Source: an uncultured Verrucomicrobiaceae bacterium
GTDB taxonomy: Bacteria; Pseudomonadota; Gammaproteobacteria; Pseudomonadales; CAMLJR01
Direction: 5' to 3'
Assembly: GCA_964638025.1 (NCBI GenBank)
Contig: CAZWXW010000003.1
Location: 15,126-79,125, forward strand
DNA: 64,000 bases
Shown: positions 7,457 to 55,013 of the stretch, one piece after another
Position numbering within the stretch: position 1 is the stretch's first letter
How the letters are laid out: every line of letters starts with the position of its first letter
Notes under the pieces: generated by a model
Databases searched by the model: none
What the model saw: the letters and a program-made list of their open reading frames with translations, nothing else
Told to the model about the DNA's origin: nothing
Position numbers and translations under genes: made by a program

Positions 7457-7472
7457 TGGTATGGCGACTGCA
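7457..7472 (+). promoter_or_regulatory. Candidate sigma-54 (-24/-12) promoter upstream of P1
   Basis: TGGTATGGCGACTGCA; GG to GC spacing as in TGGCAC-N5-TTGC; 43 nt upstream of ATG 7515. Confidence 0.5.
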
Positions 7473-7514
7473 AGAGCGTGGCTGAGTGGTTAAGGACGAT
7501 ATCCGGAGTTCACG

Positions 7515-8660
7515 ATGGCAAGAGATTTTGCAGCACCTCCCGGTTCTTCAGGGCCCGGCTCTTCAGGGCCCGGCTCTTCAGGGACTTCACGCTTTCCGAC
7601 CACGCTGTGGTATTCGCGCAGCTCGGTGCCGACGGCGCTCGGCATTGCCGCGCAGCTGGGATGGCTGCAGCAGGAGTTTTCGCCTGAAAGCATCGCCGTG
7701 CGTTCGCTGCAGCAGAGCGGCGATCCGCTGCTGCGCGAGAGTCATGTCGATCACCATCTGCCCGACAGCTTTCGCCAGGGCGGCAGCGTGCCGGCGCTGT
7801 GGGCCTATTCCGCCGGCGCCGATACCCGCCTGATCGGATTGACCTGGACCGAAGAGTTTCAGGCCGTGCTCAGCCTGCGCGGCTCCGGCATCGACAGCGC
7901 GCAACAGTTGCGCGGCCGTCGCCTCGGCCTGCCGTCGCGCCCCAACGAGCGCATCGACATGGCGCGGGCGACGGCGCTGCGCGGTTACCTGACGCTGCTC
8001 GATGTCGAGGGGATCGGTTATGACGAGGTGCAGCTGGTGGATGTCGAGACCGCGCCGTTGAGCGCGAATCATCTGCCGATCGACAATCGCAACTCGGCGG
8101 CATGGGCCAGCACGCCGGCGGGACATCTGACCCGGCGCGACTACCGGGCGGATGTGCTGGCGCTGCTGCGCGGCGACGTGGATGCCATCTATGTGAAAGG
8201 CGTGCGCGGCATCGAGGTGGCGCGGCTGCTCGGCGAGCAGGTGCAGGTGGCGGCCGATATCGGCGGCCATCCCGATATTCACGTGCGCAGCAACAACTCG
8301 ACGCCGCGCCCGCTGACGATCAGCGCCTCGACGCTGGAGAACTATCCCGATGTCGCCGTGCGTTTTCTGCGGCGGGTGGTGGAGGCGGGTGCCTGGGCGG
8401 AAACGCATCCGCGCGAGACGGTTGCGCTGCTCGGGCGCGAGACCGGTTCGGTCGAGGAGTGGATCAGCTACGCCTACGGCGTGGAAGTGCACCGCTACCT
8501 GCGCACCGATCTGGCTGATTACGCGCTGTCGGCGCTCGATGATTTCAAGAATTTCCTGTTCAAGTGGGGGTTTCTGCCCCACAACTTCAATCTCAATGGC
8601 TGGGTCGATTTCGAGCCGCTGGAACAGGTGCACAGGCTGCCGCGCAAGCGTATCGCGTAA
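7515..8660 (+). CDS. Cytoplasmic SsuA-fold protein, DszB (sulfinate desulfinase)-like paralog P1; Ser in place of the putative nucleophile Cys
   Basis: No signal peptide; motifs LWYSRSSVPTA, SHVDHHLPDSFRQGG, LIGLTWTEEFQA, LRGRRLGLP, FLFKWGFLP shared with 24607, 35366 and 49784 copies; N-terminal (PGSSG)x3 from a 15-bp tandem repeat. Confidence 0.7.
   Translation: MARDFAAPPGSSGPGSSGPGSSGTSRFPTTLWYSRSSVPTALGIAAQLGWLQQEFSPESIAVRSLQQSGDPLLRESHVDHHLPDSFRQGGSVPALWAYSAGADTRLIGLTWTEEFQAVLSLRGSGIDSAQQLRGRRLGLPSRPNERIDMARATALRGYLTLLDVEGIGYDEVQLVDVETAPLSANHLPIDNRNSAAWASTPAGHLTRRDYRADVLALLRGDVDAIYVKGVRGIEVARLLGEQVQVAADIGGHPDIHVRSNNSTPRPLTISASTLENYPDVAVRFLRRVVEAGAWAETHPRETVALLGRETGSVEEWISYAYGVEVHRYLRTDLADYALSALDDFKNFLFKWGFLPHNFNLNGWVDFEPLEQVHRLPRKRIA
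7541..7585 (+). repeat. 15-bp tandem repeat x3 inside the 5' end of P1 (encodes PGSSG x3)
   Basis: CGGTTCTTCAGGGCC / CGGCTCTTCAGGGCC / CGGCTCTTCAGGGAC. Confidence 0.85.
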
Positions 8661-8679
8661 CTTGGCTGACAGGAGGCGT

Positions 8680-9834
8680 GTGTTGCGCGCGGTCGGGTTC
8701 TGGTTGCCGTGTCTGCTGTTGTTGTCCGGATGTGCATCGTCGCCGTCGCAGCCACCGGTTGCCGATCTGCCGGCTTACCGGGGCGCGGATGCGCCGGCGC
8801 GGACGACCGATCCGCGCTTTCAGGCTGATGTCAGGGCGCTGACTCCCGAGATCCGGCGGCTGCTCGACCGGCATATCGATGCCAGTGGTGACTGGCTGCG
8901 GCTGCAGCAGTTGGTGGCGTTGTTCCAGTCCGATCCGCAGTTCGGTCTGCGCTACAACGCCGCCGTCACTTTTGATGCAGCCGAAACATTCCGGCGCCGC
9001 GAGGGCAACTGCCTGTCGCTGTCGATCCTGTTTGTCGCGGCCGCGCGTCACGTCGGTCTCGATGCCCGTTTTCAGGATGTCGAGCTGCTGCCGACCTGGC
9101 GCCAGGAGGGCAATGTCTTTGTGGCCGAACGCCATATCAATGTTGCGGTGGTGATTCATCAGAAACCGGTGATCGTCGATTTCCTGGTCGATCCATCGAC
9201 TGAAACGGTGGCGATCCGGCAGATTCCCGACAGCGCCATGCTGGCGCAGTTCTACAACAATGTTGGCGTCGAACATCTGGCGGCCGGCGAACTCGGTGCG
9301 GCCTACCTGTTCTTTCAGCGCGCGGTGACGCTGGCACCGCGGACCTCCTATCTGTGGACCAATCTCGGTGTCGTGCTTTCGCACGCCGGTCAGGTCGATG
9401 ATGCGCGCCAGGTCTATCGGCATGCGCTACAGCTCAATGCCGTCGACGAAGTGGCGCTGAGCAATCTGGCGACGCTGGCCGACGGTGAATCCGGGGTGTC
9501 GGCGGAGCTGCTGGCGCGCGTCGAGCGTCTGCGCAACAGCAATCCGTTCTATCACTACTGGCAGTCGGAGCGTCTGCGCGCCGCCGGCGACCGCGACGGC
9601 GCCATCGCGGCATTGCGAGCGGCGATCCGGCTGAAGTCCGACGAGTCGTCATTCCACTTCGCATTGGCGCGGCTGCTGTTGCTGCAGGGGGAGCGCAAGC
9701 AGGCCGATCTCAGCCTCGAATCCGCTCGCCGTCTTGCGCGCGACGACGACACGCGCCAGCGCTACGAGGATGAATATCGCCAGCTGTTGCGCGACCAGCT
9801 TCCGGCAGCGACTGTCTCCTCGCGTACACGTTGA
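8680..9834 (+). CDS. Lipoprotein with transglutaminase-like core and TPR repeats
   Basis: In ORF 8350-9834; GTG 8680 / TTG 8683 after AGGAGG (8671-8676); lipobox LLLLSGC; REGNCLSLSILFVAAARHVG (Cys core) plus ERHINV; TPR-like AQFYNNVGVEHLAAGELGAAYLFFQRAVTLAP. Confidence 0.7.
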   Translation: MLRAVGFWLPCLLLLSGCASSPSQPPVADLPAYRGADAPARTTDPRFQADVRALTPEIRRLLDRHIDASGDWLRLQQLVALFQSDPQFGLRYNAAVTFDAAETFRRREGNCLSLSILFVAAARHVGLDARFQDVELLPTWRQEGNVFVAERHINVAVVIHQKPVIVDFLVDPSTETVAIRQIPDSAMLAQFYNNVGVEHLAAGELGAAYLFFQRAVTLAPRTSYLWTNLGVVLSHAGQVDDARQVYRHALQLNAVDEVALSNLATLADGESGVSAELLARVERLRNSNPFYHYWQSERLRAAGDRDGAIAALRAAIRLKSDESSFHFALARLLLLQGERKQADLSLESARRLARDDDTRQRYEDEYRQLLRDQLPAATVSSRTR

Positions 9835-9901
9835 TAGCAGCTGGCTGCTGCTGTGCGGCCAGTTTGTACGGCCATACCGCCCGCGCCGCCGCGAAACCGG
9901 C

Positions 9902-9917
9902 TGGAATGACTCTTGCT
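9902..9917 (+). promoter_or_regulatory. Candidate sigma-54 promoter upstream of mdtA-like gene
   Basis: TGGAATGACTCTTGCT; correct spacing, good -12 TTGCT, weaker -24; 59 nt upstream of GTG 9976. Confidence 0.35.
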
Positions 9918-9975: not shown

Positions 9976-11190
9976 GTGTCCATCGTCCTATCTGCCGTGC
10001 CGCCATCAGTGCGACGCTGTCTGTCACTCCCGCTGCTCGCAACACTGCAGGTCATCGCGCTGTTGCTTATTGCGGGCTGTGGTGCCGAGCAGCCGGCGCA
10101 GGCGCGCGCCGGTGGCCAGCCGCCAGTGCCGGTGGTCACCCGTGAAGTCGGCAGCGGTTCGCTGACCGTCTATCTCGATGCCCTCGGCACCGTCACGCCG
10201 TCCAGCAGCGTGCTGGTGCGCAGTCGCGTCGACGGGCAGTTGCTGCGCGTCCATTTCAGCGAGGGGCAATTGATTCGTGCCGGCGAGCTGCTGGCGGAGA
10301 TTGATCCACGGCCGTTTCAGGTGCAGCTGGCGCAGATGCGCGGCCAGCTCGCGCGCGACGAGGCGATGCTGCGCGGTGCGCGCGTCGATCTCGAACGCTA
10401 TCGCGAGTTGTGGCAGCAGGATTCGATCGCTCGCCAGCGCGTCGACAGTCAGGAGGCGCTGGTCGCTCAATATGAGGGCGAGGTGGAGGCGGTGCGCGGG
10501 CTGGTCGGTAACGCCAGCCTGCAGCTGGAGTACGCGACGATTACCGCGCCGATCGGCGGGCGCGTCGGTCTGCGCCAGGTCGATGCCGGCAATGTCATTC
10601 ACAGCGCCGACAGCCAGGGGCTGGTGCTGATCACGCAGCTGCAGCCGATCCAGGTGCTGTTCACGCTGCCGGAGGATTCGCTGCCGCGCCTGTTGCCGCG
10701 CCTGCAGCAGGGCGAGCAGCTGGTGGTCGCCGCCTACGATCGCGAGTTCAGTCGCCGCCTCGCCATCGGCAAGCTGGTCAGCGTCGACAACCAGATCGAT
10801 GCGACCACCGGCAGCGTGCGCCTGAAGGCGCAGTTCGATAACAGCGACTACGCGCTGTTTCCCAATCAGTTCGTCAATATCCGCCTCGCGCTGGAGACGC
10901 TGGCCGACGCGGTACTGGCTCCCTCCGTCGCCATTCAGCGCGGCAATCGCGGCAACTTTGTCTATGCCGTCAACGACGACGCCAGCGTGCGGCTGCAGCC
11001 GGTGACGCTGGGCGCGACCGAAGGCGATCGCGTTGCCGTCACCGATGGCTTGGTGCCCGGCGATATCGTCGTTGTCGAAGGTGTCGACCGGCTGCGCGCC
11101 GGTGCTGTCGTTGCGCCAATCAAGAGTGCGGAGACAGAAAAGACGGCGACAAAGACCGCGCCGCTGTCGCCGCGCACCGCCGCGCGCTGA
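9976..11190 (+). CDS. mdtA: RND efflux membrane-fusion (periplasmic adaptor) protein, MdtA-like
   Basis: ORF 9913-11190; GTG 9976 after TGGAG favoured over TTG 9913; lipobox LLIAGC; adaptor motifs ATITAPIGGRVGLRQVDAGN; followed by two tandem RND pumps. Confidence 0.75.
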   Translation: MSIVLSAVPPSVRRCLSLPLLATLQVIALLLIAGCGAEQPAQARAGGQPPVPVVTREVGSGSLTVYLDALGTVTPSSSVLVRSRVDGQLLRVHFSEGQLIRAGELLAEIDPRPFQVQLAQMRGQLARDEAMLRGARVDLERYRELWQQDSIARQRVDSQEALVAQYEGEVEAVRGLVGNASLQLEYATITAPIGGRVGLRQVDAGNVIHSADSQGLVLITQLQPIQVLFTLPEDSLPRLLPRLQQGEQLVVAAYDREFSRRLAIGKLVSVDNQIDATTGSVRLKAQFDNSDYALFPNQFVNIRLALETLADAVLAPSVAIQRGNRGNFVYAVNDDASVRLQPVTLGATEGDRVAVTDGLVPGDIVVVEGVDRLRAGAVVAPIKSAETEKTATKTAPLSPRTAAR

Positions 11191-11199
11191 TTTATCGCC

Positions 11200-14100
11200 A
11201 TGAACCCCTCGCGCATTTTCATCAAGCGGCCGGTGGCGACGCTGCTGCTGATGCTGGCGCTGCTGATCGCCGGCGGCGTCGCCTACCGGCTGCTGCCGAC
11301 GGCCGCGTTGCCGGAGGTCGACTTTCCGACGATTCAGGTGACCACGCGTTATCCGGGCGCCAGTCCCGAGGTGATGGCGGCGGCGGTGACCGCGCCGCTG
11401 GAGCGGCAGTTCGGGCTGATGTCCGGGCTGACGCAGATGTCGTCGACCAGCTCCAGCGGTGTCGCCGTCATCACGCTGCAGTTCGCGCTCGACATGCCGC
11501 TGGAGATCGCCGAGCAGACGGTGCAGGCGGCGATCAATGCCGCCGCCGGCTTCCTGCCGCGCGACCTGCCGTCGCCGCCGCTCTACAGCAAGGTCAATCC
11601 GGCCGATGCGCCGGTACTGACACTGGCGATCAGCTCCGATTCGCTGCCGCTGACGGCAGTGCAGGATCTGGTCGACACGCGGCTGGCGCAGAAGATCGCG
11701 CAGGTGCCCGGCGTCGGGCTGGTCAGCCTGGCCGGCGGTCAGCGTCCGGCGGTGCGCATCCAGCTCAACCCGAACAGCGCCGCCGCCTACGGTCTCGGGC
11801 TCGATACGCTGCGCGCGGCCATCGCCGCCGCCAACTCCAGTCAGGCCAAGGGCAGCTTCGAGGGCGAGCTGCGCGCCTCGACCATCGATGCCAACACGCA
11901 ATTGCGCGGCGCCAATGAATACCGCGAGCTGATCGTGGCGTGGCGCAACGGCGCGCCGGTGCGGCTGGAACAGATCGCCAGCGTCAGCGACGGCGCCGAG
12001 GATCTGCGGCTGGCGGCGTGGAATGGCGAGCGGCCGGCGATCCTGCTCAACGTGCAGCGCCAGCCGGGCGCCAATGTCATCGCCGTGGTCGACCGCATCC
12101 ACGCGCTGCTGCCGGAGCTGCGCGCGGCGCTGCCGGGCACGCTCGATGTCGAGGTGCTGACCGATCGCACCGATGCCGTTCGCTCCGCCATCCGTCATGT
12201 GCAGTTCGAGCTGCTGCTGGCGATCGCGCTGGTGGTGATGGTGATCTTCCTGTTTCTGCGCAACGTGCCGGCGACGCTGATTCCGAGCGTTGCCGTGCCG
12301 CTGTCGCTGGTCGGCACGTTTGGCGCGATGTATCTGGCCGGCTTCAGCATCAACAACCTGACGTTGATGGCGCTGACCGTCGCCACCGGTTTCGTCGTCG
12401 ATGACGCCATCGTCATGATTGAAAACATCAGTCGGCATCTGGAGATGCCGGCTGATGTTTCGGCGGAGGCTAATGCCGACGCAGTCGGCGTTAAGGATGC
12501 GAATGCATCCGGCCGTAGCCAAAACATTGCCCCGGATGTGGCAGGGAGGATGTCACCACTCCAGGCGGCGCTGAAAGGCTCGCGCGAAATCGGCTTCACC
12601 ATCATCGCGCTGACCTTCTCGCTGGTGGCGGTGCTGATCCCGCTGCTGCTGATGGGCGACGTGGTCGGCCGGTTGTTTCGCGAGTTCGCCATCACGCTGG
12701 TGGTGGCGATCCTGATCTCGGCGGTGGTGTCGCTGAGTTTGACGCCGATGCTGTGCGCGCGGCTGCTGCACCGTCGCGAGGTGAATGGGCATGGCGACAG
12801 CCACCCGCAGAGTGGCGCGCTGTTCAACGCCGTGCTCTCGCGCTACGCAACGGCGTTGAACTGGGTGCTGGCGCATCAGCCGGCGGCGCTGCTGGCGACG
12901 GCGGCGACGCTGTTGCTGACAGCGTTGCTGGCGTGGTGGGTGCCGAAGGGCTTCTTTCCGATTCAGGACAACGGCGTCATCCAGGGCATCACCGAGGCGC
13001 CGCAGTCGATCTCGTTCGCCGCCATGGCGCAGCGCCAGCAGGTGCTGGCCGCGGTGATCCTGCGCGATCCGGCGGTGCGGAGCCTGTCGTCGTTTGTCGG
13101 GGTCGACGCCATCAACACCGCGCTCAACAGCGGTCGCATGCTGATCAACCTGAAACCGCACGGCGAGCGCGATGGCGCGGCGGAGGTGATCCGGCGCCTG
13201 CAGCAGGCAGTCGCCGAGGTGAATGGAATTTCGCTGTTCATGCAGCCGGTGCAGGACCTGACCATCGACGACCGGGTCAGTCGCACGCAGTTCCAGCTGC
13301 TGGTGGAGAGCGCCGATGGTGAACAGCTGACGCGCGCGGTGCCGGCGCTGTTGCAGCGCATGCGCGAGTTGCCGCAGCTGGCCGACGTGACCAGCAATCT
13401 GCAGAACGAAGGATTGAAGACATATATCGCTGTCGATCGCGATGCGGCGTCACGCCTCGGCATCAGCATTGGCGCCATCGACGATGCGCTCTACAGCGCG
13501 TTCGGGCAGCGCCATGTCTCCACCATCTTCACGCAGTCGAACCAGTACCGCGTGGTGCTGGAGGTGGCGCCGGAGTTTCGCAACCGGGCGGAGGCACCGG
13601 CGGCACTGCGCATCGCCGCCGCCGATGGCACGCTGGTGCCGCTCGCCGCCATCGCCCGTATCGAGCAGCAGCTGGCGCCGACCGTCATCAATCGCGAGAA
13701 GCAGTTTCCGGCGGCGACGCTGTCGTTCAATCTCGCCGAAGGCTACTCGCTCGGCGATGCCGTCGCCGCCATTGAAGCCGAGCGCACGGCACTGTCACTG
13801 CCGCCGGCGGTGCAGACGCGCTTCCAGGGTGCTGCGCTGGCGATCGGCGCTGCGCTGTCGAACTCGCTGCTGCTGGTCATCGCCGCCGTGGTCACGCTCT
13901 ACATCGTGCTCGGCGTGCTCTACGAGAGCTACATCCATCCGCTGACGATTCTGTCGACGCTGCCGTCGGCCGCCGTCGGTGCACTGCTGGCATTGCTGTT
14001 GTCAGGGCACGAGCTGAACGTGATCGCCATCATCGGCATCGTGCTGCTGATCGGCATCGTGCAGAAGAACGCCATCATGATCATCGACTTCGCGCTGGAG

Positions 14101-14415
14101 GCGGAGCGCAGCGACGGGCTGTCTGCACGGGCGGCGGTGCAGCAGGCCTGCCTGTTGCGGTTGCGGCCGATTCTGATGACGACGATGGCGGCATTGCTGA
14201 GCGCGCTGCCGCTGATGTTCAGCAGCGGCGCCGGCGCCGAACTGCGGCAACCGCTCGGCATCACGCTGGTCGGCGGCCTGCTCGCCAGCCAGCTGCTGAC
14301 GCTGTTCACCACGCCGGTGATCTATCTCGCCTTCGATCGACTGGCACGGCGATTGACGCGGCGACAGCAGCGCCGCGTCGAAGAACCGTCAGTGCCGGTG
14401 CAGCCGGCATCGTGA
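11200..14415 (+). CDS. mdtB: RND efflux permease, MdtB-like
   Basis: 1071 aa; AcrB/MdtB hallmarks ([52 protein letters not shown]); about 36-aa insertion at 12445-12555. Confidence 0.9.
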
Positions 14416-14434
14416 GACGACTGTGATGAACTTG

Positions 14435-14556
14435 GGAACCTCTCATCAAGTCGCCTCTCCCTTCAGGGAGAGGGTTAGGGAGAGGGCGGAAGTGCGCATC
14501 AATCGACCCTCTCCCCTCTCCCTGAAGGGAGAGGGGAGAGATGCGTTTTTCCGGAA
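14435..14556. repeat. REP/MITE-like palindromic element, copy A (double hairpin), between mdtB and mdtC
   Basis: GGAACCTCTCATCAAGTCGCCTCTCCCTTCAGGGAGAGGGTTAGGGAGAGGG - spacer GTGCGCATCAATCGA - CCCTCTCCCCTCTCCCTGAAGGGAGAGGGGAGAGATGCGTTTTTCC. Confidence 0.85.
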
Positions 14557-14565
14557 GCGCCAGCG

Positions 14566-17500
14566 ATGAACTTCGCCGCGCTCTGTATTCGCCGGCCCGT
14601 CGCGACGGTATTGCTGACGCTGGCGGTGACGCTGATCGGCGCCGTCGCCTTTGTGTCGCTGCCGATCGCGTCGCTGCCACAGGTCGACATGCCGGTCATC
14701 AATGTGCAGGCGACACTGCCCGGCGCCAACGCCGAAACCATGGCGGCCACCGTCGCCACGCCGCTGGAACGGGCCATCGGCCGCATCGCCGGCATCACCG
14801 AACTGACCTCGACCAGCAACCAGGGCAACACGCGGGTCAGCGTGCAGTTCGATTTCGGTCGCAACGCCGATGCCGCCGCGCGCGAAGTGCAGGCCGCGAT
14901 CAGCGCCGCGCAGGGCGTGCTGCCGGTCAGCCTGCCGTCGGCGCCGGTCTATCGCAAAGCCAATATCGCCAGCTCGCCGGTGCTGGCGATTGCGCTGACC
15001 TCCGATTTCCGCAGCCGCGAGCAGCTCTACGATGTCGCCTTCACGCTGCTCGGACAGAAGATCGCGCAGGTGCCCGGCGTCGGCCAGATCAATGTCAACG
15101 GCAGTGCGCTGCCGGCGGTGCGCGTCGCCGTCAATCCGACCGCGCTGAGCCACTACGGTGTCGGGCTCGAACAGGTGCGCGCGGCGCTCGCCGCCGCCAA
15201 CGTCAACCAGCCGAAAGGGGTGGTCGAATCGGCGCAGCAGCAGTGGCAGATCGACATCAATGATCGCGCCCGCCGCGCCGCCGACTATCGCGATCTGATC
15301 ATCAGCTGGCACAACGGCGCGCCGGTTCGTCTCGCCGACATCGCCGATGTCAACGATTCGCTGCAGGAGCTGCGCAACGCCGGCAGCTCCAACGGCCAGC
15401 CGGCGGTGATGCTGTCGGTGTTCAACCAGCCCGGCGCCAACATCGTCGAGATGGTCGACGCCATCAAGGCGCTGCTGCCGCAGTTGCGCGGCGCGATTCC
15501 GGCCGACATTGATGTCGTCGTCAACATGGATCGCACCAGCACCATCCGCGCGACGCTGCGCGAAGTCGAGCACACGCTGCTGATCTCGATCGCGCTGGTG
15601 ATCCTGGTGGTCTACCTGTTCCTGCGCAGCGGTCGCGCCACCTTCATTCCCAGCGTGGCGATTCCGGTGTCGCTGCTGGGGACGCTGGCCGTCATCTACC
15701 TGCTCGGCTACAGCCTCAACAACCTGTCGCTGATGGCGTTGATCATCGCCACTGGCTTCGTCGTCGACGATGCCATCGTCGTGGTCGAGAACACGGCGCG
15801 ACTGATCGAGCGCGGCGTGGCGCCGACGGTGGCGGCGCTGCAGAGCCTGCGCGAAGTCGGCTTCACCGTGGTGGCGATGAGCCTGGCGCTGGTGGCGGTG
15901 CTGCTGCCGGTGCTGCTGATGGAGGGAATCATCGGCCGCCTGCTGCGCGAATTCTCGGTGACGCTGTGCATCGCCGTGCTGATCTCGCTGGTGGTGTCGC
16001 TGACCACGACGCCGATGCTGTGCGCGCAACTGCTGCGACCGCATCGGCAATCCGGGACACAGCGTGCCGGTCGGATGGCGGCGCTCGGCGACCGCATCAT
16101 TCGAGGCTACGGCACCAGCCTGTTGTGGGCACTGCGCCACCGCTGGCTGATGCTCGGTCTGCTGGCGCTGGTGGTGCTGTTGAACATCTACCTGATCGCG
16201 GTGCTGCCGAAGGGCTTCTTCCCGCAGCAGGACACCAGTCGGCTGCAGGGCAACTTCATGGCCGATCAGGCCATTTCATTCCAGGCGATGCGCGGCAAGA
16301 TCGACCAGCTGATGCGCATCGTCGCGAAGGATCCCGCCATCGAAACCTACTACGAATACACCGGCGGTGCCGGCGCCGGGCAGAACAACAGCGGCCAGAT
16401 GTTCGCGCGATTGAAGCCGCGCGATCAGCGCGATGCATCCGCCGCCGAAGTCGTTGCCCGTCTGCGGCCGCAGCTGTCGAAAGTGGCGGGCGCCACGCTG
16501 ATGCTGAATGCGCAGCAGGACATCAACGTCGGTGGCCGCCCCGGCGCGGCGCTCTATCAGTATTCATTGTTGGCCAGCGATCTCGACGAGTTGCGACAGT
16601 GGGCACCGCGCCTGCTGGAGGCGCTGCGCAAATTGCCGCAACTGACCGATGTCAGCAGCGACTGGCAGGAGCGCGGACTGCAGACCGTGCTGAAGGTCGA
16701 TCGTGCCGCCGCCGCGCGGCTGGGCATCTCCGCCGCGAAAATCGACGCGACATTGAACGATGCTTTCGGTCAGCGCCTGGTCTCGACCATCTACGAGCCG
16801 CTCAACCAGTACTACGTGGTGCTGACCTTGCGGCCGGAGTTCACGCGCGATCCGCAGGCGCTGCGCCATATCCATGTTGCCAACGAGGCGGGCGCCACCA
16901 TTCCGCTCGCCAGTTTCAGTCGCTACGAAGAGCGCAGCGCGCCGCTGGCGGTCAATCACCAGGGGCAGTTCGCGGCGGCCACGGTGTCGTTCAACCTGGC
17001 CGACGGCGTCACGCTCGGCGAGGCTTCCATGGCGATCGATAACGCTTTTCTGACACTGGCGACGCCGGGTTCGGTGCGCGGCGGCTTTGCCGGTACCGCG
17101 CAGGTGTTCCAGCAGTCGCTGCGGAATCAGCCGCTGCTGATACTGGCGGCGCTGATCACCGCCTATATCGTGCTCGGCATCCTGTATGAAAGTTTCCTGC
17201 ATCCGTTGACGATCCTGTCGACACTGCCATCGGCCGGTGTCGGCGCGCTGCTGGCGCTGGCACTGTTTGGCAGTGAGCTCAGTGTCATCGCGCTGATCGG
17301 CATCCTGCTGTTGATCGGCATCGTGATGAAGAACGCCATCATGCTGATCGACTTCGCGCTCGATGCGCGCCGCGAGCACAAGGAGACGCGCCGCGAGCAC
17401 AAGGAGACGCGCCGCGAGCATGTAGAAGAGCGCCGCGAGCACAAAGAAAATGAACGCAGCGAGCACACGAATGAACGCCACGAGCATGGCGCGGACGCAC

Positions 17501-17772
17501 TGTCGGCGATCCATCAGGCCGGTCTGATGCGCTTCCGCCCCATCATGATGACGACGATGGCGGCAATTCTCGGCGCGCTGCCGCTGGCATTGGCATTGGG
17601 TGATGGCTCCGAGCTGCGCCGCCCGCTCGGTATCACCATCGTCGGTGGTCTGCTGGTTAGCCAGCTGCTGACGCTGTACACGACGCCGGTGATCTATCTG
17701 CATCTCGACAATCTGCAGTGCAATCTGGCCGCCTGGCGGCAGCGCTTCCGGTTGCCCGGAGCGGCCGTCTGA
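14566..17772 (+). CDS. mdtC: RND efflux permease, MdtC-like, with in-frame heptad-repeat insertion
   Basis: 1068 aa; [46 protein letters not shown]; 6 x 21-bp repeat at 17368-17493. Confidence 0.9.
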   Translation: MNFAALCIRRPVATVLLTLAVTLIGAVAFVSLPIASLPQVDMPVINVQATLPGANAETMAATVATPLERAIGRIAGITELTSTSNQGNTRVSVQFDFGRNADAAAREVQAAISAAQGVLPVSLPSAPVYRKANIASSPVLAIALTSDFRSREQLYDVAFTLLGQKIAQVPGVGQINVNGSALPAVRVAVNPTALSHYGVGLEQVRAALAAANVNQPKGVVESAQQQWQIDINDRARRAADYRDLIISWHNGAPVRLADIADVNDSLQELRNAGSSNGQPAVMLSVFNQPGANIVEMVDAIKALLPQLRGAIPADIDVVVNMDRTSTIRATLREVEHTLLISIALVILVVYLFLRSGRATFIPSVAIPVSLLGTLAVIYLLGYSLNNLSLMALIIATGFVVDDAIVVVENTARLIERGVAPTVAALQSLREVGFTVVAMSLALVAVLLPVLLMEGIIGRLLREFSVTLCIAVLISLVVSLTTTPMLCAQLLRPHRQSGTQRAGRMAALGDRIIRGYGTSLLWALRHRWLMLGLLALVVLLNIYLIAVLPKGFFPQQDTSRLQGNFMADQAISFQAMRGKIDQLMRIVAKDPAIETYYEYTGGAGAGQNNSGQMFARLKPRDQRDASAAEVVARLRPQLSKVAGATLMLNAQQDINVGGRPGAALYQYSLLASDLDELRQWAPRLLEALRKLPQLTDVSSDWQERGLQTVLKVDRAAAARLGISAAKIDATLNDAFGQRLVSTIYEPLNQYYVVLTLRPEFTRDPQALRHIHVANEAGATIPLASFSRYEERSAPLAVNHQGQFAAATVSFNLADGVTLGEASMAIDNAFLTLATPGSVRGGFAGTAQVFQQSLRNQPLLILAALITAYIVLGILYESFLHPLTILSTLPSAGVGALLALALFGSELSVIALIGILLLIGIVMKNAIMLIDFALDARREHKETRREHKETRREHVEERREHKENERSEHTNERHEHGADALSAIHQAGLMRFRPIMMTTMAAILGALPLALALGDGSELRRPLGITIVGGLLVSQLLTLYTTPVIYLHLDNLQCNLAAWRQRFRLPGAAV
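17368..17493 (+). repeat. 21-bp in-frame tandem repeat x6 inside the mdtC-like gene
   Basis: CGCCGCGAGCACAAGGAGACG x2, then diverging units; encodes RREHKET RREHKET RREHVEE RREHKEN ERSEHTN ERHEHGA. Confidence 0.9.
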
Positions 17773-18006
17773 AGCTGATCAGCTGTTTTGAAAAAAGTTG
17801 TTGTAGAGACAGGCCGGCATCAGTCGAAAGACACCATTTTTCGTCGCGCCTGCGTTACTTCGTCTGCAGCAACAACACAAGCTGCTGCAGCAACAGCGCA
17901 GCACCACTCGCTGCCTGTTTGTGCGCGCAGACAAGCAATATTTGCTCATCGATATCTGTAATGCAGCTAATCATATGAGTTTTACCTGACAGCGGAACAC
18001 TGTCGT

Positions 18007-18022
18007 TGGCTTGCAACCTGCA
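18007..18022 (+). promoter_or_regulatory. Candidate sigma-54 promoter upstream of TBDR1
   Basis: TGGCTTGCAACCTGCA; correct spacing; 67 nt upstream of ATG 18089. Confidence 0.5.
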
Positions 18023-20470: not shown

Positions 20471-20678
20471 TTGGCCGTTGCCCGTGGATAAATGAAGCCT
20501 GGATAAACGAAACGCCGGCAGTTTGAGGGCATCTGATCCGCGCGGAGAAAGTTTGTAAGCGCATTAGATGTTTGTGTGCAGACAGAGTGGTGTTTATTTC
20601 TGCGCAGCTTTCGATGCCGGCTTTCATGAAATGGATTTCGAATACTGTTTTTAAAGGAATTTTATTGGGAAGCAGGAG

Positions 20679-20694
20679 TGGCATATTTTCTGCC
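20679..20694 (+). promoter_or_regulatory. Candidate sigma-54 promoter upstream of tonB-exbB-exbD
   Basis: TGGCATATTTTCTGCC; correct spacing; 120 nt upstream of ATG 20814; AT-rich tract just upstream. Confidence 0.5.
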
Positions 20695-20813: not shown

Positions 20814-21611
20814 ATGAGTGCGCTTGCCTATTCCACATCGTCCCGCCGGCACGCCAGGCACCATCTCACCGAGGCGCTCAAGTCCGGCCCTGATGCATGG
20901 GGCAGTCCGGTCGAGCGAAGAAGCGCCGAGATTGTTGTGCTGGTTCCGCGTCAGCATGTTCCGCCGGTGGCACCGGTGCGGAAGCGCTCCGGTGGCATGG
21001 CGGCACTGACACTGCTTGGTGTCGCTGCCATCCATGTTGCGATTGCGTTGGCGTTTTCCAGTCAGCCCCAGCCAAAGATCACGCCGGCCGAGGTTCCCCC
21101 GATGACGGTGGAGTTTTATCGTCCGCCCGTCGAGCAGCCGCCGGAACCGGAGCAACCGAAGGAGCCGCCGCCACCCAAGCCGCAGCCGGTGGTCAAGAAA
21201 CCGAAGCCGGTGGAGAGAGCGAAGCCGGTTGAAGTCAAGTCAGAGCCACTTCCTGTTCAGCCGGAAGTGACTGCCGCACCGCCGTTGCCGGCACCGGCGC
21301 CCGAACCGTCGCCGCCCAGGCCCGTACTTACCCAGGCGACGGCGGATGCCGGCTATCTGCGCAATCCGGCGCCCAGCTACCCGCGATTCGCGCAGGATCA
21401 GGGCTGGGAGGGCGGTGTGATCCTGAACGTTCTCGTGCTGCCCAATGGCAAGCCGAAGGAGATCACCATCCTGAAGTCCAGCGGCCGCAAGCTTCTCGAC
21501 GATGCCGCCGTCAAGGCCGTGCGCCGTTGGTCCTTTGTTCCGGCGAAGCTCGACGACGTTCCGGTCGAATCGTGGGCCGAGGTGCCGATCGATTTCAAAC
21601 TGACCCAGTAG
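20814..21611 (+). CDS. tonB: TonB energy transducer
   Basis: GGAG RBS; one TM (LTLLGVAAIHVAIALAF); Pro-rich spacer PPEPEQPKEPPPPKPQPVVKKPKP; C-terminal TonB domain YPRFAQDQGWEGGVILNVLV...AVRRWSFVPA. Confidence 0.85.
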   Translation: MSALAYSTSSRRHARHHLTEALKSGPDAWGSPVERRSAEIVVLVPRQHVPPVAPVRKRSGGMAALTLLGVAAIHVAIALAFSSQPQPKITPAEVPPMTVEFYRPPVEQPPEPEQPKEPPPPKPQPVVKKPKPVERAKPVEVKSEPLPVQPEVTAAPPLPAPAPEPSPPRPVLTQATADAGYLRNPAPSYPRFAQDQGWEGGVILNVLVLPNGKPKEITILKSSGRKLLDDAAVKAVRRWSFVPAKLDDVPVESWAEVPIDFKLTQ

Positions 21612-21675
21612 GGCGTGTGGAATCAGCCCGAAGATTTTCATTGGCTTCGGCCATCGCAATAGCCGGTTCCTTAAA

Positions 21676-22425: not shown

Positions 22426-22847
22426 TGGCTATCTCCAGTGCCAGTGGCGGTGAAAACGATGAAGTGCTGAGCGAGATAAACATCACGCCGATGGTCGATG
22501 TGATGTTGGTACTGCTCGTGGTATTCATCATCACCGCCCCGCTGATGACAAACTCGATCACCGTTAATTTGCCAAAGACAGACGCGACGCCGCAGTTGCA
22601 GAAGCCGGAAGAGCCGCTGGTGGTGAGTATCGACACGGCTGGGCTTGTCTACCTCGGAAAGGAAGAGGTTCCGATCGATTTCGTCGAACAGGAACTGATT
22701 GCCCGCAAGGCAAGTAATCCCGACATCAGATTGAGTCTGAATGCCGACGAGACGGTCTCCTATGGCGTGGTCGCCAAAGTGATGGTGATCATCGAGCGGG
22801 CCGGCATCGACAAGCTGTCGGTCGTCACACAGCAGGACGGCGCTTAG
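22425..22847 (+). CDS. exbD: ExbD/TolR-family protein
   Basis: ATG overlaps exbB stop (TAATG); INITPMVDVMLVLLVVFIITAP motif. Confidence 0.85.
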   Translation: MAISSASGGENDEVLSEINITPMVDVMLVLLVVFIITAPLMTNSITVNLPKTDATPQLQKPEEPLVVSIDTAGLVYLGKEEVPIDFVEQELIARKASNPDIRLSLNADETVSYGVVAKVMVIIERAGIDKLSVVTQQDGA

Positions 22848-38965: not shown

Positions 38966-39030
38966 GGAACCTCTGATCAAGTCCCCTCTCCCTTCAGGGA
39001 GAGGGGCGAAATGCGTTTTTCAGAGGTTCC
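38966..39030. repeat. REP/MITE-like element, copy E (compact 65-bp form with terminal inverted repeats)
   Basis: GGAACCTCTGATCAAGTCCCCTCTCCCTTCAGGGAGAGGGGCGAAATGCGTTTTTCAGAGGTTCC; the ends GGAACCTCTGA / TCAGAGGTTCC are inverted repeats. Confidence 0.85.
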
Positions 39031-44244: not shown

Positions 44245-44361
44245 CTCTGATCAAGTCCCCTCTCCCTTCAGGGAGAGGGTTAGGGAGAGGGTGACAAGGC
44301 GCATGAATCGGCCCTCTCCCCCGCCCCTCTCCCTGAAGGGAGAGGGGAGAAATGCGTTCCA
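44241..44361. repeat. REP/MITE-like element, copy F (double hairpin), between yejF-like 2 and yejA-like 2
   Basis: GAGTCTCTGATCAAGTCCCCTCTCCCTTCAGGGAGAGGGTTAGGGAGAGGG - GCGCATGAATCGG - CCCTCTCCCCCGCCCCTCTCCCTGAAGGGAGAGGGGAGAAATGCGTT. Confidence 0.85.
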
Positions 44362-48337: not shown

Positions 48338-48353
48338 GTGTCATCGCAACCAC

Positions 48354-50915: not shown

Positions 50916-50931
50916 AGCATGCTCCATGCCA
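50916..50931 (-). promoter_or_regulatory. Candidate sigma-54 promoter upstream of the P4 / DszA-like operon
   Basis: Minus strand reads TGGCATGGAGCATGCT; correct spacing; 50 nt upstream of ATG 50866. Confidence 0.55.
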
Positions 50932-51379
50932 GCTTGCCGAATGCCGCTGTCCCGGCGGCGACTGTCGCCATTGAATCCACTTATTTTCACGGGGATTTCG
51001 CCGAAAAATCGGCCTGGAACAACTTTGAACGAGTTGTCTATCCGGGACGGTTGCCGCCGCCATGTCGGGGAGCGCTGCTGTTTTCAGCGATGCCTGTGCG
51101 TTTAATCCAGCAGGGGATGCGCAGTACTGTTGAAATTTACGCGGCGTACGCGGCGGCGGTGGCCGCTCGCCAGCTGCGACCGGCGCCTTCCTTCTCGCCC
51201 GAACATGGCGGTCGGGTGCAATCGCATGTCATCAATGAAAATACACGTCGTCTGAATCACCGCGTCGATGAGAGTAGAGAAAATAAACTGCGTCTATTTT
51301 CTTTTCGAAGATTTCTTGTCGCAGAAAATGGCGTCATCAGATATCGAAGCACGAATTGGAAAATGGTTATTTTTTTCCA

Positions 51380-51395
51380 TGGCATGGTTTTCGCT
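51380..51395 (+). promoter_or_regulatory. Candidate sigma-54 promoter upstream of TBDR3
   Basis: TGGCATGGTTTTCGCT; correct spacing; 72 nt upstream of ATG 51467; divergent from the 50916-50931 site. Confidence 0.5.
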
Positions 51396-51466: not shown

Positions 51467-53995
51467 ATGCACACCACCAACCAAAAAAAGCAGCGGAATG
51501 TCGCTGAAAAAATATATCTGACCGCGAAAGCATTTCGTCGAAATGCTATTTATGCGGCACTTGCCGGCACCGCCATGATGGCTTCAGCTCATGCTGCTGA
51601 TGCGACAGCAGCTGATGAAAGTGCAGCAAAGGTAACTGCATCTTCAGCAGAGGGAGTCATCCAGGAATCGAAAGTCTCGTCGGATTCCGCAGCGAAAGAA
51701 GGGAGTTCGGCGGGCCGGGGCCGCGCTCTCGGTGCCGTGGTCGTCACCGCGCAAAAGCGTACACAGAATCTGCAGGAAGTACCGGTGGCGATCACGGCCA
51801 TCAGAGGTGACGCCGTTCGCGAAAAGGCCATTCTCCTTTCCACCGATGTTGAACGGCTGGTTCCAAACCTGTCGGCCGAAGGTGGCGGTCGCAGCGGAAA
51901 GCCGCGCTGGTTCCTGCGTGGTATCGGCACCAACGATCCCAATCAGAACCAGGACGGACCGCTCTCCATTTACGTCGACGAGGTGGTGGTGGGCTACCAG
52001 TCCAGCCAGAGTTTCCCGCTTTACGACCTGGAGCGAGTAGAGGTTCTGCGCGGTCCGCAGGGTACGCTGTGGGGAAAGAACAATACGGGCGGCGCCATTC
52101 ATTACATCAGTAAAAAGCCGAGCTTCACCTCGGGTGGCTATACCAAACTGACCTACAGCCCCAGTGACGAAGGGCGCGAGATCGAAGCGGCATATGGCGG
52201 AGCCATCGTCGAAGATGTTCTGGCAGGGCGTTTCTCCTTCTATCAGGAAAGCGCTGAAGGCTATGCCAAAAACGAGGCGGGGGACGATCTGGGGGCTTCC
52301 AAATACGGTCCATCAACGGACGACGTCAATGTTCGCGTCCAGTTTCTGGCCAATATCACATCAAATCTCGATGCACATCTGATTCTCAGCACGCGTCGCC
52401 TGAATGGCGGCGACTCTTCACCGAGTTACCCGGTCGGCGCGACGACGGATCCGCTCACCGAGCTTACGGTCGTCAATCCAAGCGGGGCCTGGCTCATCAA
52501 CGGCAAGCCTTTCACGCCGAGCTACGGCAGCGATCCCGACTATGACGACGATTACTTCGATGGCACTGGAAGCAGCAAGGTCGAATTCAACAATGCCACG
52601 CTGAAGTTCAACTGGCAGCTGGGTGACAACACGCTGACCTCCATCAGTGCCTACAACACCCGCGAAGGCAACTCCTTCTCGCTGGTGAGCGTCCCGCTGG
52701 AAAGCTACTCCAATCGCAGCTCTGGTTTCAGTGCACTGGATACCGAACAGGTGACCCAGGAGCTGCGCCTGACATCGCCACAGGATCAGAGGCTGAGCTG
52801 GATACTCGGCGCTTACTACTATGACCTGACAGCACACAACCGCAGTCGCACCGCACGCTTCGACTTCGCGCCCTCCGAGGTGAGCGACCCCACTTATCCC
52901 GCGCCGGCAAACTATCGTCAGTACTCGCTGAGCTCCTGGGATCAGGACTCCGAGAGCAAGGCCGTCTTCGGCAATGCCCGCTTCTGTTTCACGGATGACC
53001 TGTCGCTGATAGTGGGTCTGCGCCAGACCTGGGAAGAAAAGGAGATCACGATTTCCTCGACGACTTATCGCGCCACCCATTTCAACTATCTGAGCCAGAA
53101 TGGCTGGTATCTGCCGGGCGGGATTGCGTTTACCGCAGCCGGCCTCAATGTCCAGCCGACAGTGGTCGGCAATGAGAAGGATTGGTCCGAATTCACCTGG
53201 GATGTCACACCGGAGTACCGCTTCTCTCCGAATGTTCTGGGTTATGGCCGTATCGCCAAGGGTTTTCGTTCCGGCGGCTTCAACTCATCCATCAACAATG
53301 GTCAGGTCTACGAAACGGATCCGGAGACGCTGATCGCCTATGAACTGGGTTTGAAGACATCGCTGTTCGATGATCGCCTTACGCTGAATACCGCGCTGTT
53401 CCATTACGATATCGAGAATATCGCGCTCAACATCCAGCGCGCCTTCTGGAACAGCACCACCAGCACCTGGACCACCAGTGCGCTGGGTCAGTCCGATGGG
53501 CAGGTCACGGGTATCGAGTTCGAAGCGGATTCGCAGGTAACCAGCAACTGGCATCTCGGTGGCTCCCTGGGTTACTTGCAATCCAAGTACACCGACTTCC
53601 TTTACAACATCGGTGGCGCCGGGCCTTTTGATGCCAGCGGCAACAGCTTCTACCGGACACCGGAACTCTCCTTTCGAGTCGATACCGACTACACGATTCC
53701 GTTTTCCTTCGGCGATCTCATCCTTTCGACGGACTGGTCGTACCGCAGCAAGATCTATCACAACGCCACTGTTCAGCATGACCCGCGACAGGAGACGCCG
53801 GGCTACTGGATAGGCAACGTCCGCGCACGCTATGCACCGTCCGACAGAGCATGGGAGGTGGCTGCCTATGCCAACAACGTGCTGGACGAAGTGTCGATCT
53901 ACTTGCGTCAGATCGCCAATCCCAACAGCGGAACGCAGCCGAACTCATTCAGCCAGGCGCGTTCCTACGGGGTTTCCGTTACCTGGAATTTCTGA
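51467..53995 (+). CDS. TonB-dependent receptor, TBDR3
   Basis: In ORF 51356-53995; ATG 51467; signal peptide ...ALAGTAMMASAHA; GAVVVTAQKRTQ, RWFLRGIGT, GPQGTLWGKNNTGGAIHY; C-terminal ...SVTWNF. Confidence 0.9.
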   Translation: MHTTNQKKQRNVAEKIYLTAKAFRRNAIYAALAGTAMMASAHAADATAADESAAKVTASSAEGVIQESKVSSDSAAKEGSSAGRGRALGAVVVTAQKRTQNLQEVPVAITAIRGDAVREKAILLSTDVERLVPNLSAEGGGRSGKPRWFLRGIGTNDPNQNQDGPLSIYVDEVVVGYQSSQSFPLYDLERVEVLRGPQGTLWGKNNTGGAIHYISKKPSFTSGGYTKLTYSPSDEGREIEAAYGGAIVEDVLAGRFSFYQESAEGYAKNEAGDDLGASKYGPSTDDVNVRVQFLANITSNLDAHLILSTRRLNGGDSSPSYPVGATTDPLTELTVVNPSGAWLINGKPFTPSYGSDPDYDDDYFDGTGSSKVEFNNATLKFNWQLGDNTLTSISAYNTREGNSFSLVSVPLESYSNRSSGFSALDTEQVTQELRLTSPQDQRLSWILGAYYYDLTAHNRSRTARFDFAPSEVSDPTYPAPANYRQYSLSSWDQDSESKAVFGNARFCFTDDLSLIVGLRQTWEEKEITISSTTYRATHFNYLSQNGWYLPGGIAFTAAGLNVQPTVVGNEKDWSEFTWDVTPEYRFSPNVLGYGRIAKGFRSGGFNSSINNGQVYETDPETLIAYELGLKTSLFDDRLTLNTALFHYDIENIALNIQRAFWNSTTSTWTTSALGQSDGQVTGIEFEADSQVTSNWHLGGSLGYLQSKYTDFLYNIGGAGPFDASGNSFYRTPELSFRVDTDYTIPFSFGDLILSTDWSYRSKIYHNATVQHDPRQETPGYWIGNVRARYAPSDRAWEVAAYANNVLDEVSIYLRQIANPNSGTQPNSFSQARSYGVSVTWNF

Positions 53996-54026
53996 TCAGG
54001 TTCGCGGTATCAAGTCGGAGATGGCA

Positions 54027-54066
54027 GGCAGGGCTTTCGGGTTGGCCGAAGCCCTGCCCGCTTTTT
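54027..54066 (+). terminator. Rho-independent terminator after TBDR3
   Basis: GGCAGGGCTT(T)CGG-GTTGG-CCGAAGCCCTGCC (13 bp, one bulge) followed by CGCTTTTT. Confidence 0.65.
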
Positions 54067-54923
54067 CACGACAAACTCTTTTTCAGGAATGCAATCGTCC
54101 GCGACCACGCCAGCTCGGCAGATGCCTTGTCGTAGCGCGCGGCGGAGGTGTCGTTGTTGAAGGCGTGGTTCGCGCCTTCATAAATGAACAGCGCGTACTT
54201 CTTGTTCGCCGCCTTCAGCGCCTGCTCGAAAGCGGGAATGCCCTCGTTGATACGCTGGTCCAGTCCGGCGTAGTGCAGTTGCAGCGGCGCCTGAATCTTT
54301 TCCACATCGCCACTGGCGGGCTGCCGGCCGTAGTAGACGACGCCGGCATTCAGCGCCGGGTCGTGTACCGCCAGTTCGCCGACCTTGCCGCCGCCCCAGC
54401 AGAAGCCGACAGCGCCGACACGACCGTTGCCGCGCGGATGTGTCGCCAGAAACTGTCGCGCAGCCAGCAGGTTCTTTCGGGTAACGCCGGCATCGAGATT
54501 GGCAATCAGTTCGCGCGCCGCATCCTCGTCGGTGGGCGTGCCGCCTGTCGGTGACAGGAAGTCGGGTGCCAGCGCCAGGAATCCCGCGGCCGCGAATCGG
54601 CGCGCCACGTCTTCGATGTGTGCATTCAACCCGCGATTTTCATGGATGACGATGACGGCCGGCAGTGCGTTGTCACCCTTTGGCTGGGCCAGATAGCCGT
54701 TGAATTCGGCGTTGTCGGGAATGGCAACGCGCTGCGTTTGCAGGCGCGGGTCGGTGTCGGCGATGACCGTGGCGGCGGAGGTATTGGCCGCCAGCAGCGG
54801 CAGCAGCGTGGCGGCACAGGCAGTGCTGCCGGAAAGGCGCGCGAGACGCGCCATGAAGCTGCGTCGGTCGAGTGCGGTGTGAGTGAATTCGTCGTAGAGG
54901 TCGATCATGGCTTGGCTGATCAC
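54066..54923 (-). CDS. Dienelactone hydrolase family protein with Tat-type signal
   Basis: DRRSFMARLARL twin-Arg motif; AVIVIHENRGLNAHIEDVARR, GAVGFCWGG nucleophile elbow, GANHAF. Confidence 0.8.
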   Translation of the reverse strand: MISQAMIDLYDEFTHTALDRRSFMARLARLSGSTACAATLLPLLAANTSAATVIADTDPRLQTQRVAIPDNAEFNGYLAQPKGDNALPAVIVIHENRGLNAHIEDVARRFAAAGFLALAPDFLSPTGGTPTDEDAARELIANLDAGVTRKNLLAARQFLATHPRGNGRVGAVGFCWGGGKVGELAVHDPALNAGVVYYGRQPASGDVEKIQAPLQLHYAGLDQRINEGIPAFEQALKAANKKYALFIYEGANHAFNNDTSAARYDKASAELAWSRTIAFLKKSLS

Positions 54924-54997
54924 GAGGCAACTCCTTTATTTGCAATCGGTGTGGATGAATGTCGAGTTGATACAGCTATTCCTTCAGTAAGTTCTTC

Positions 54998-55013
54998 AGC
55001 ACATGCCGTGCCA
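54998..55013 (-). promoter_or_regulatory. Candidate sigma-54 promoter upstream of the dienelactone hydrolase gene
   Basis: Minus strand reads TGGCACGGCATGTGCT (closest to the TGGCACG-N4-TTGCW consensus); 75 nt upstream of start 54923. Confidence 0.55.

Follow-up and report, generated by a model that had tools for sequence, protein, structure and literature searches.

According to the parts of PMC8234197 and PMC13352529 that deal with it, SfnR is a receiver-less, NtrC-family activator of sigma-54 that controls sfnFG, sfnA and msuEDC in Pseudomonas putida DS1/KT2440 and P. aeruginosa, serving FMNH2-dependent monooxygenase genes and the use of organosulfur compounds under sulfate starvation. The primary studies cited there are Endoh 2003, Endoh 2005, Habe 2007 and Lundgren 2019, and literature cited in the same parts describes the expression of sfnR as CysB-dependent. 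The present analysis concerns a 64,000-nt stretch (the window; 62% G+C) of contig CAZWXW010000003.1 from an uncultured Verrucomicrobiaceae bacterium, in which a first-pass annotation had pointed to nine -24/-12 elements, the signature of sigma-54 promoters, upstream of operons for uptake and desulfurization, and to two bacterial enhancer-binding proteins (bEBPs), named R1 and R2. We estimate at roughly 0.8 the probability that the window carries a sulfur-scavenging island in which transcription of most operons starts at sigma-54 promoters, with these two sensor-less bEBPs as activators. Matrix ranking, conservation in related genomes and an upstream activator sequence (UAS) all support a predicted sigma-54 regulon for uptake and desulfurization that includes its own TonB system and is tied to the local bEBPs, as had been proposed.

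The resemblance to the SfnR regulon lies in domain make-up and gene content, with sensor-less bEBPs standing beside SsuD-, DszA- and DszB-like genes, and the paralogues SfnR1 and SfnR2, mentioned for P. aeruginosa in the same parts of those papers, may be compared with R1 and R2. The island differs in that its regulon adds three TonB-dependent receptors (TBDRs), TonB-ExbBD, Yej-type importers, a resistance-nodulation-division (RND) pump, DszB-like desulfinases and a dienelactone hydrolase (DLH). PspF and HrpR/HrpS likewise consist of AAA+ and helix-turn-helix (HTH) domains only, with no regulatory domain, so that their activity depends on how strongly they are expressed or on a partner protein; however, no PspA- or HrpV-like partner is evident in the window.

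NifA-type UASs have the form TGT-N10-ACA. The UAS found here is also a 16-bp palindrome located 80-200 bp upstream of a -24/-12 promoter, and its TGTTG-N6-CAACA variant fits that form, whereas about half of the sites are TGCTG-N6-CAGCA and do not; positions 5 and 12, the inner G/C, are conserved. R1 and R2 also lack the GAF domain of NifA. The enzymes recall the dszABC genes of the 4S pathway of dibenzothiophene desulfurization, two NMT1/SsuA-like proteins (P1 and P4) resembling DszB and a luciferase-like monooxygenase (LLM2) resembling DszA, but in Rhodococcus the dsz operons have sigma-70-type promoters and are repressed by sulfate, while those here are predicted to depend on sigma-54 and are accompanied by TonB-dependent uptake and ATP-binding cassette (ABC) import. 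Similarly, the CysB/Cbl-controlled ssu and tau genes of enterobacteria and pseudomonads share sulfonate-binding proteins and SsuD-like monooxygenases with the island, but use sigma-70 and a LysR-type activator in place of -24/-12 elements and a bEBP.

The island is an extension of the known SfnR scheme, not a new kind of system. New are its breadth (at least nine predicted promoters), the inclusion of TBDRs, a dedicated TonB-ExbBD and an RND pump, the dsz-like enzymes and the enhancer motif. No description of a sigma-54/SfnR-type TonB-ExbBD system was found in the searchable literature; one survey gives predicted, unconfirmed sigma-54 sites at tonB genes, in Flavobacteriia only.

The nine elements, named here after the first gene that follows each (P1, mdtA, TBDR1, tonB, yejB1, yejA1, P4, TBDR3 and DLH), have the form TGG-N9-YGC. 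Their reported coordinates, strands and exact GG-to-GC spacing (10 nt) all proved correct, as did the distance to the start codon (43-120 nt from the GC, or 58-135 nt from the T of TGG). All are intergenic and on the same strand as their gene, and every start codon downstream has a Shine-Dalgarno sequence. The string TTTCTGCC is indeed common to two of them, tonB and yejA1, while the number beginning with TGGCAT or TGGCAC is four (tonB, P4, TBDR3 and DLH) and not five. The minimal motif occurs 171 times in the window, compared with 144 ± 11 times in shuffled sequence. Over the 150-nt stretches that precede 29 gene starts, between 2.5 (shuffles) and 5.3 (window density) matches are expected, and 11 forward and 5 reverse matches are observed, with none of 2000 shuffles reaching 11. 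The excess upstream of genes is real, yet smaller than first claimed: for about 15 starts, roughly 1.3-2.7 chance matches are expected instead of fewer than one, and the minimal motif by itself makes a weak case.

A stronger argument comes from a sigma-54 position weight matrix (PWM) built from 29 intergenic, ChIP-chip-supported Salmonella sites (Table 3 of PMC3844500), a different organism, whose training sites score 14.0-20.0 on the core matrix. The full 18-column matrix favours AT-rich spacers, so a core score over the 12 informative columns was relied upon, with p derived from dinucleotide shuffles of each region; the two strands give 128,000 scored positions. The top 14 positions include seven of the nine elements, all intergenic and in the correct orientation (Table 1). 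On the full matrix, the element of TBDR3 ranks first (20.4), close to glnA TGGCACAGATTTCGCTTT. Seven of the 29 upstream regions beat their own shuffles at p < 0.05, and five do so at p <= 0.012. Held against shuffled controls for resemblance to the extended consensus TGGCAC-N5-TTGCW, the proposed set divides: P4, DLH, TBDR3, mdtA and tonB stand clear of the background (p <= 0.012), P1 and TBDR1 are marginal, and yejA1 and yejB1 do not stand out.

Conservation was analysed in 80 loci from a genome scan with R2 and in 44 loci that a metagenome scan with P4 returned. The closest of the R2 loci comes from a metagenome-assembled genome (84% identity), and after it come many loci of Cellvibrio and allied Gammaproteobacteria. 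Related loci totalling 1.73 Mb contain 138 strong sites, compared with 10.7 ± 3.2 in local-composition shuffles, a 13-fold excess. The R2 set holds 92 sites scoring at least 15.5, none of them within sequence homologous to a window protein. The genes downstream are tonB (20 sites), P-like (14), TBDR (9) and LLM (6), besides DLH, yejB1, an ABC exporter, a nitroreductase and others, and 36 of the 92 have no identified gene behind them. All 20 loci of this set that hold both an R2 homologue and tonB have a TGGCAY-N5-CTGCW-type site upstream of tonB (scores 14.2-18.3). The P4 set has 59 sites, of which only two fall within sequence homologous to a window protein. Most of the remaining sites in the two sets face homologues of tonB, P-like, TBDR, LLM, DLH, mdtA or yejB genes, and about a third are without an identified gene. 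Many of the 44 loci share the layout in which TBDR3 diverges from P4-LLM2-yejBEF, or that in which P4 is followed by mdtABC. P4 orthologues have a site upstream, roughly 40-130 nt away (mostly 40-70), in 29 metagenomic loci, and TBDR3 orthologues have one in nine. For eight of the nine elements, a predicted -24/-12 element is conserved upstream of the orthologous gene, that of P1 as an equivalent but position-shifted element; those of tonB, yejA1, TBDR1 and mdtA appear as conserved islands amid diverged spacers.

P-like genes are the commonest class downstream of sigma-54 sites in related loci. Strong sites were also seen on unrelated metagenomic contigs (L133 at 2820, L136 at 1592, L138 at 1595 and L139 at 1428), where the genes behind them form hydrolase-TBDR-NMT1-LLM, LLM, aldolase-II and LLM-DLH operons, respectively. 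This class of predicted sigma-54 promoter seems widespread in organosulfur loci.

The putative enhancer provides a signal that is independent of the -24/-12 motif and, among the predicted promoters, rescues the three that score lowest on the PWM. An exact search for gapped palindromes in the intergenic regions of the window gave no common UAS, only a REP-like element. The motif TGYTG-N6-CARCA was derived by aligning orthologous tonB and P4 promoters, and a matrix was then built from sites in related loci. Of 137 regions taken from -260 to -20 relative to strong sigma-54 sites, 98 contain the pattern TGYT-N8-ARCA, often twice, compared with none of 132 controls; positions peak between -100 and -220. 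In the window, the best matrix matches fall between genes, and six of the nine elements have matches at -88 to -212. These are clear at P1, yejB1, yejA1 and P4, the four promoters where pairs are spaced 31-32 bp apart, and weak at TBDR1 and tonB. The second P1 site (19.3) is the second best match in the window, and a score like that of the yejB1 pair is reached in just 0.9% of 200-nt windows. Furthermore, 11 of the 20 tonB promoters from related loci (Cellvibrio and relatives) have an exact TGCT-N8-AGCA at -78 to -196.

The strongest UAS pair in the window lies in the divergent region between R2 and P2 and is kept in the closest relative, L001. As no conserved GG-N10-GC is found nearby, this pair may serve the autoregulation of R2. 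Two candidates for a P2 element were set aside: TGGTATCCCGATGCT is not counted because it is 1 nt short of the required GG-GC spacing, and CGGCACGCGGACTGTGAG is not conserved in L001.

Several points weigh against a regulon of this extent. The strong sites in related loci were selected with the same PWM, and the locus counts are not independent events because many of the loci are related to one another. The core scores of yejB1 and yejA1 do not exceed those of shuffles, and the C-A positions of the -24 box, invariant in the 29 training sites, are altered in the elements of P1, mdtA, TBDR1, yejA1 and yejB1. No convincing UAS lies within 260 bp of the mdtA, DLH and TBDR3 elements, and no -24/-12 element stands beside the pair between R2 and P2, where no GG-N10-GC is shared with L001. 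The stretch upstream of yejB1 has no counterpart in L001. Finally, there is no rpoN gene in the window.

Regarding the activators, the window does encode two bEBPs, identified by matches to PF00158. R1 and R2 are 50% identical, and alignment places Walker A/B motifs in both. The C-terminal HTH of R2 has no Pfam match, but aligns with that of R1 (LLGISRN.LR). No sensory or receiver domain was found by Pfam/NCBIfam in either protein, the AAA+ domain starting at about residue 50 in R1 and 33 in R2, and R1 has no specific NCBIfam equivalog match. R2 homologues in 80 species adjoin tonB-exbBD, P-like, TBDR and LLM genes with sigma-54 sites, and across Cellvibrio and related lineages the association of a sensor-less, SfnR-like bEBP with a sigma-54-type tonB-exbBD is conserved. 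The neighbourhood of an Azotobacter bEBP homologue was uninformative on SfnR orthology. R2 has a sigma-70-like promoter, TTAGCA-17-TAGAAT, at 24197-24169, and P2 an apparent one, TTGATA-N17-ATATAT, around 24491-24519, while no sigma-70-like consensus was found upstream of TBDR1, tonB, yejB1 and yejA1. The occurrence of such a promoter at R2 but not at those four genes fits a proposed control through bEBP abundance.

It could be argued that the sites, though real sigma-54 promoters, answer to a bEBP whose gene lies elsewhere in the genome, or to R1 alone or R2 alone. The mdtA and DLH elements without a UAS would agree with this, as would the mixture of TGTTG and TGCTG variants among promoters, not assignable to R1 or R2, and some P4-type loci with no bEBP gene within 6 kb. 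We consider it unlikely, although it is the most serious of the alternatives, since homologues of R2 and R1 adjoin UAS-bearing sigma-54 promoters in dozens of species, the HTH segments of the two proteins are near-identical, and the two best UAS matches in the window lie beside the R2 and R1 genes.

Between P1 and R1, and co-oriented with R1, lies a gene for an EAL-only protein (6218-7096, minus strand), in the same order in the relative L134; this protein could be a partner or modulator of a sensor-less bEBP. Upstream of R1, L134 has a sigma-54-like TGGCAAGTTCTCTGCAAG (about 2500-2515, minus strand), and the window has, in alignment with it, TTGCAAATGCAATGCT at 6164-6179 (minus strand), in which the GG is lost.

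Inspection of the single elements returns to the predicted regulon and its extent. The P4 element is identical in L122, and the CTGCTGGATT... half-site of its UAS is also found in orthologous P4 promoters. In L125, the DLH orthologue (86%) keeps TGGCACGGCAACTGCTCG 72 nt upstream, though the gene has been relocated behind an ABC exporter gene, and a 74% DLH orthologue follows an LLM gene that bears its own sigma-54 site. The tonB element is an island of identity in L001, with the spacer largely diverged. At mdtA, 21 of 22 nt are kept in L134 between diverged flanks, and the orthologue in L090 carries TGGCACGCCCTGTGCTCT.

A narrower reading holds that only these consensus-like elements (P4, TBDR3, DLH, tonB and perhaps mdtA) are functional, with P1, TBDR1, yejA1 and yejB1 being chance matches whose genes are read through or have sigma-70/CysB-type promoters. 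It is favoured by their core scores of 5.6-11, below the training range, two of which (yejB1 and yejA1) are within the shuffle background, and by gene order in relatives. In L129, tonB follows TBDR1 after a 90-nt gap without a promoter, and therefore operon boundaries vary among relatives; in L001, yejB1 comes directly after an LLM gene. However, it is precisely these weak sites that have UAS pairs at enhancer distance, and in the yejA1, TBDR1 and mdtA islands the non-consensus -24 base is either kept or swapped for another non-A. At P1, the aligned position is not conserved in L134, which has instead TGGTACAGCGGCTGCTAT, 31 bp closer to the UAS pair, itself conserved, and TGGTAY-N5-CTGCW is present in both genomes. 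Moreover, genuine nif promoters of Klebsiella have TGGTAT or TGGAGC as -24 elements. For TBDR1, L129 (80% amino acid identity) has TGGCGTGCATTCTGCAAT at the aligned position, with a UAS at the same -127 and the block CTGCTGYAGCARCA kept, and L131 (63%) has TGGCGCGATAAGTGCTAA with strong UAS matches. For yejA1, L001 keeps the island TGGCGCGATTTCTGCC between diverged flanks as well as the UAS block ATCTGTTCAAAAACAACCA. We judge this narrower reading improbable, slightly more so than a different assignment of the activators.

For yejB1, the support is confined to its strong UAS pair and to a strong site upstream of yejB1 in the distant L080, with which the upstream region gives no meaningful alignment. 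The LLM gene that abuts yejB1 in L001 has left a trace here: positions 25741-25830 of the window are a remnant of its 3' end, about 90% identical to the L001 coding sequence, and the window has lost this gene, which sits between P2 and yejB1 in L001.

Taken one by one, the P4 element is almost certainly a sigma-54 promoter as far as sequence can tell, those of tonB and TBDR3 very likely are, and that of DLH is only slightly less secure. The mdtA element is a probable promoter, P1 and TBDR1 are candidates held with a little less assurance, yejA1 is mildly favoured, and for yejB1 the odds are even. That all nine are chance matches in lower-G+C intergenic DNA, in an island under CysB/Cbl at sigma-70 promoters like ssu/tau, is strongly disfavoured: the near-background frequency of the minimal pattern (171 against 144), the initial chance estimate that was too low and the sigma-70-like promoters at R2 and possibly P2 speak for it, but the PWM ranking, the 13-fold excess in related loci, the 20 of 20 tonB sites, the 29 P4 loci and the associated UASs are left unaccounted for.

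The model of a sigma-54 regulon builds on the promoter-like elements with their position and conservation, on the UAS motif that co-occurs with promoters and on the domain make-up of the bEBPs. R1 and R2 would be the proteins that bind the TGYTG-N6-CARCA pairs, about 90-210 bp upstream, and from there would remodel the closed complex of the sigma-54 holoenzyme. The signal would be sulfur limitation, probably sensed through the expression level of the bEBPs, as for SfnR and CysB, and we infer that all nine sites fire. The regulon would comprise the DszB-like desulfinases (P1 and P4), a DszA/NtaA-type monooxygenase and SsuD-type monooxygenases elsewhere in the operons, as well as three TBDRs, the dedicated TonB-ExbB-ExbD, Yej-type ABC importers, the MdtABC-like RND pump and DLH.

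If confirmed, the sigma-54/SfnR sulfur-starvation circuit would grow from a few monooxygenase operons to a system reaching from uptake to efflux, and would take in a dedicated TonB-ExbBD, predicted to be under the control of sigma-54 and conserved among many environmental Gammaproteobacteria. TGYTG-N6-CARCA is a testable enhancer motif for a widespread family of sensor-less bEBPs, and could be useful for annotating dsz-like desulfurization loci in metagenomes and for picking promoters in biodesulfurization engineering. A more tentative proposal, for which we hold limited confidence, is that the island handles bulky organosulfur compounds for their sulfur only, as one complete and co-regulated processing line. 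The TBDRs, energised by a sulfur-dedicated TonB-ExbBD paralogue under sigma-54 control, would carry these compounds through the outer membrane, and Yej-type ABC systems would import them. DszA-like and SsuD-like monooxygenases and DszB-like desulfinases would then release sulfite, and the MdtABC-like RND pump would expel the desulfurized, potentially toxic carbon skeleton. TonB energisation itself would, if this is true, be a sulfur-starvation response.

By Pfam/NCBIfam matches, sulfur-scavenging genes are densely packed in the window. Besides those listed in Table 1, there are three Yej-type ABC sets, a nitroreductase, and LLMs of SsuD-like and NtaA/DszA-like types. P1 and P4 match DszB over the full length (E about 1e-10) and LLM2 matches DszA (1e-84), which makes the term 'desulfurization' used in the first-pass annotation an apt one. 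P1-P4 are four paralogous proteins with the fold of substrate-binding proteins and without an obvious signal peptide. The possibility that they act as trans-acting sensors for the domain-less bEBPs was set aside, as P1 and P4 match an enzyme, DszB, from end to end.

Table 1. Positions of the features discussed. Scores are core PWM scores for -24/-12 elements and UAS-matrix scores, in the order of the sites, for UAS pairs; ranks are among 128,000 scored positions.
Feature	Position	Strand	Sequence or description	Distance from TGG	Score	Rank	p
P1 -24/-12	7457-7472	+	TGGTATGGCGACTGCA		11.0	10	0.041
mdtA-like -24/-12	9902-9917	+	TGGAATGACTCTTGCT		13.5	5	0.001
TBDR1 -24/-12	18007-18022	+	TGGCTTGCAACCTGCA		10.3	14	0.044
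tonB-exbB-exbD -24/-12	20679-20694	+	TGGCATATTTTCTGCC		13.2	6	0.012
yejB1E1F1 candidate -24/-12	26057-26072	+	TGGAATGGATCGTGCC; weakest of the nine		5.6	none	0.20, within shuffle background
yejA1-TBDR2... -24/-12	30319-30334	+	TGGCTCGATTTCTGCC		6.0	none	within shuffle background
P4-LLM2-yejB2E2F2A2 -24/-12	50916-50931	-	TGGCATGGAGCATGCT		17.4	1	<0.001
TBDR3 -24/-12	51380-51395	+	TGGCATGGTTTTCGCT		14.9	3-4	0.010
DLH -24/-12	54998-55013	-	TGGCACGGCATGTGCT		16.1	2	0.006
P1 UAS pair	7277-7324		TGCTGGCGTGTCACCA and TGTTGCTGTAGCAACA, starts 32 bp apart; kept in L134	-180 / -148	10.3 / 19.3		
TBDR1 UAS-like sites	17856-17895		TACTTCGTCTGCAGCA, AGCTGCTGCAGCAACA	-151 / -127	9.1 / 9.8		
tonB weak UAS-like pair	20569-20606			-110 / -88	8.9 / 8.6		
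R2/P2 divergent-region UAS pair (strongest in window)	24269-24304		TGTTCGATATCCAGCA, TGTTGGATTTTCAACA		15.8 / 21.1		
yejB1 UAS pair	25914-25961		TGTTACCGGATCAACA and TGCTGAATTGCTAACA, starts 32 bp apart	-143 / -111	13.0 / 16.1		
yejA1 UAS-like pair	30188-30235		starts 32 bp apart	-131 / -99	9.3 / 11.0		
P4/TBDR3 divergent-region UAS-like pair	51097-51143		TGCGTTTAATCCAGCA, TGTTGAAATTTACGCG	-181 / -212 (P4)	11.2 / 6.9		
R1	4903-6030	-	bEBP; Sigma54_activat PF00158 (4e-70), HTH_8, GAFTGA loop				
R2	22913-24112	-	paralogous bEBP; PF00158 (1e-65), GSFTGA loop				
P1	7515-8660	+	NMT1/SsuA-like 'P' protein, DszB-like				
MdtABC-like RND pump	9976-17772	+	mdtA-like gene encodes the RND adaptor				
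TBDR1	18089-20470	+	TonB-dependent receptor				
tonB-exbB-exbD	20814-22847	+					
P2	24607-25740	+	NMT1/SsuA-like 'P' protein				
TBDR2	32395-34746	+	TonB-dependent receptor; operon yejA1-TBDR2...				
P3	35366-36463	+	NMT1/SsuA-like 'P' protein				
P4	49784-50866	-	NMT1/SsuA-like 'P' protein, DszB-like; operon P4-LLM2-yejB2E2F2A2				
TBDR3	51467-53995	+	TonB-dependent receptor, divergent from P4				
DLH	54066-54923	-	dienelactone hydrolase				
REP/MITE-like repeat copies	14450-14540, 29975-30080, 36485-36580, 38984-39005, 44258-44346, 59202-59274						

Further features of the window were recorded. The 5' end of P1 (about 7545-7590) contains a 15-nt tandem unit repeated three times, encoding GSSGP-like residues. 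Divergent from DLH, an open reading frame of 465 amino acids (55093-56490, plus strand) is annotated as a gene in the source assembly; it has no Pfam/NCBIfam match, and its codon-position G+C bias is weaker than in its neighbours. An Rfam scan of the window gave zero matches, and therefore the spacers are not known riboswitches or small RNAs. Several intercistronic gaps, such as the 150-nt gap between mdtB and mdtC, are occupied by a composite repeat resembling repetitive extragenic palindromes (REP) or miniature inverted-repeat transposable elements (MITE), in which CCCTCTCCCT-N3-AGGGAGAGGG hairpins recur, as a rule two to each unit of about 100 bp. L001 lacks the copy that lies upstream of yejA1, and comparable hairpins occur in L129 and L131.

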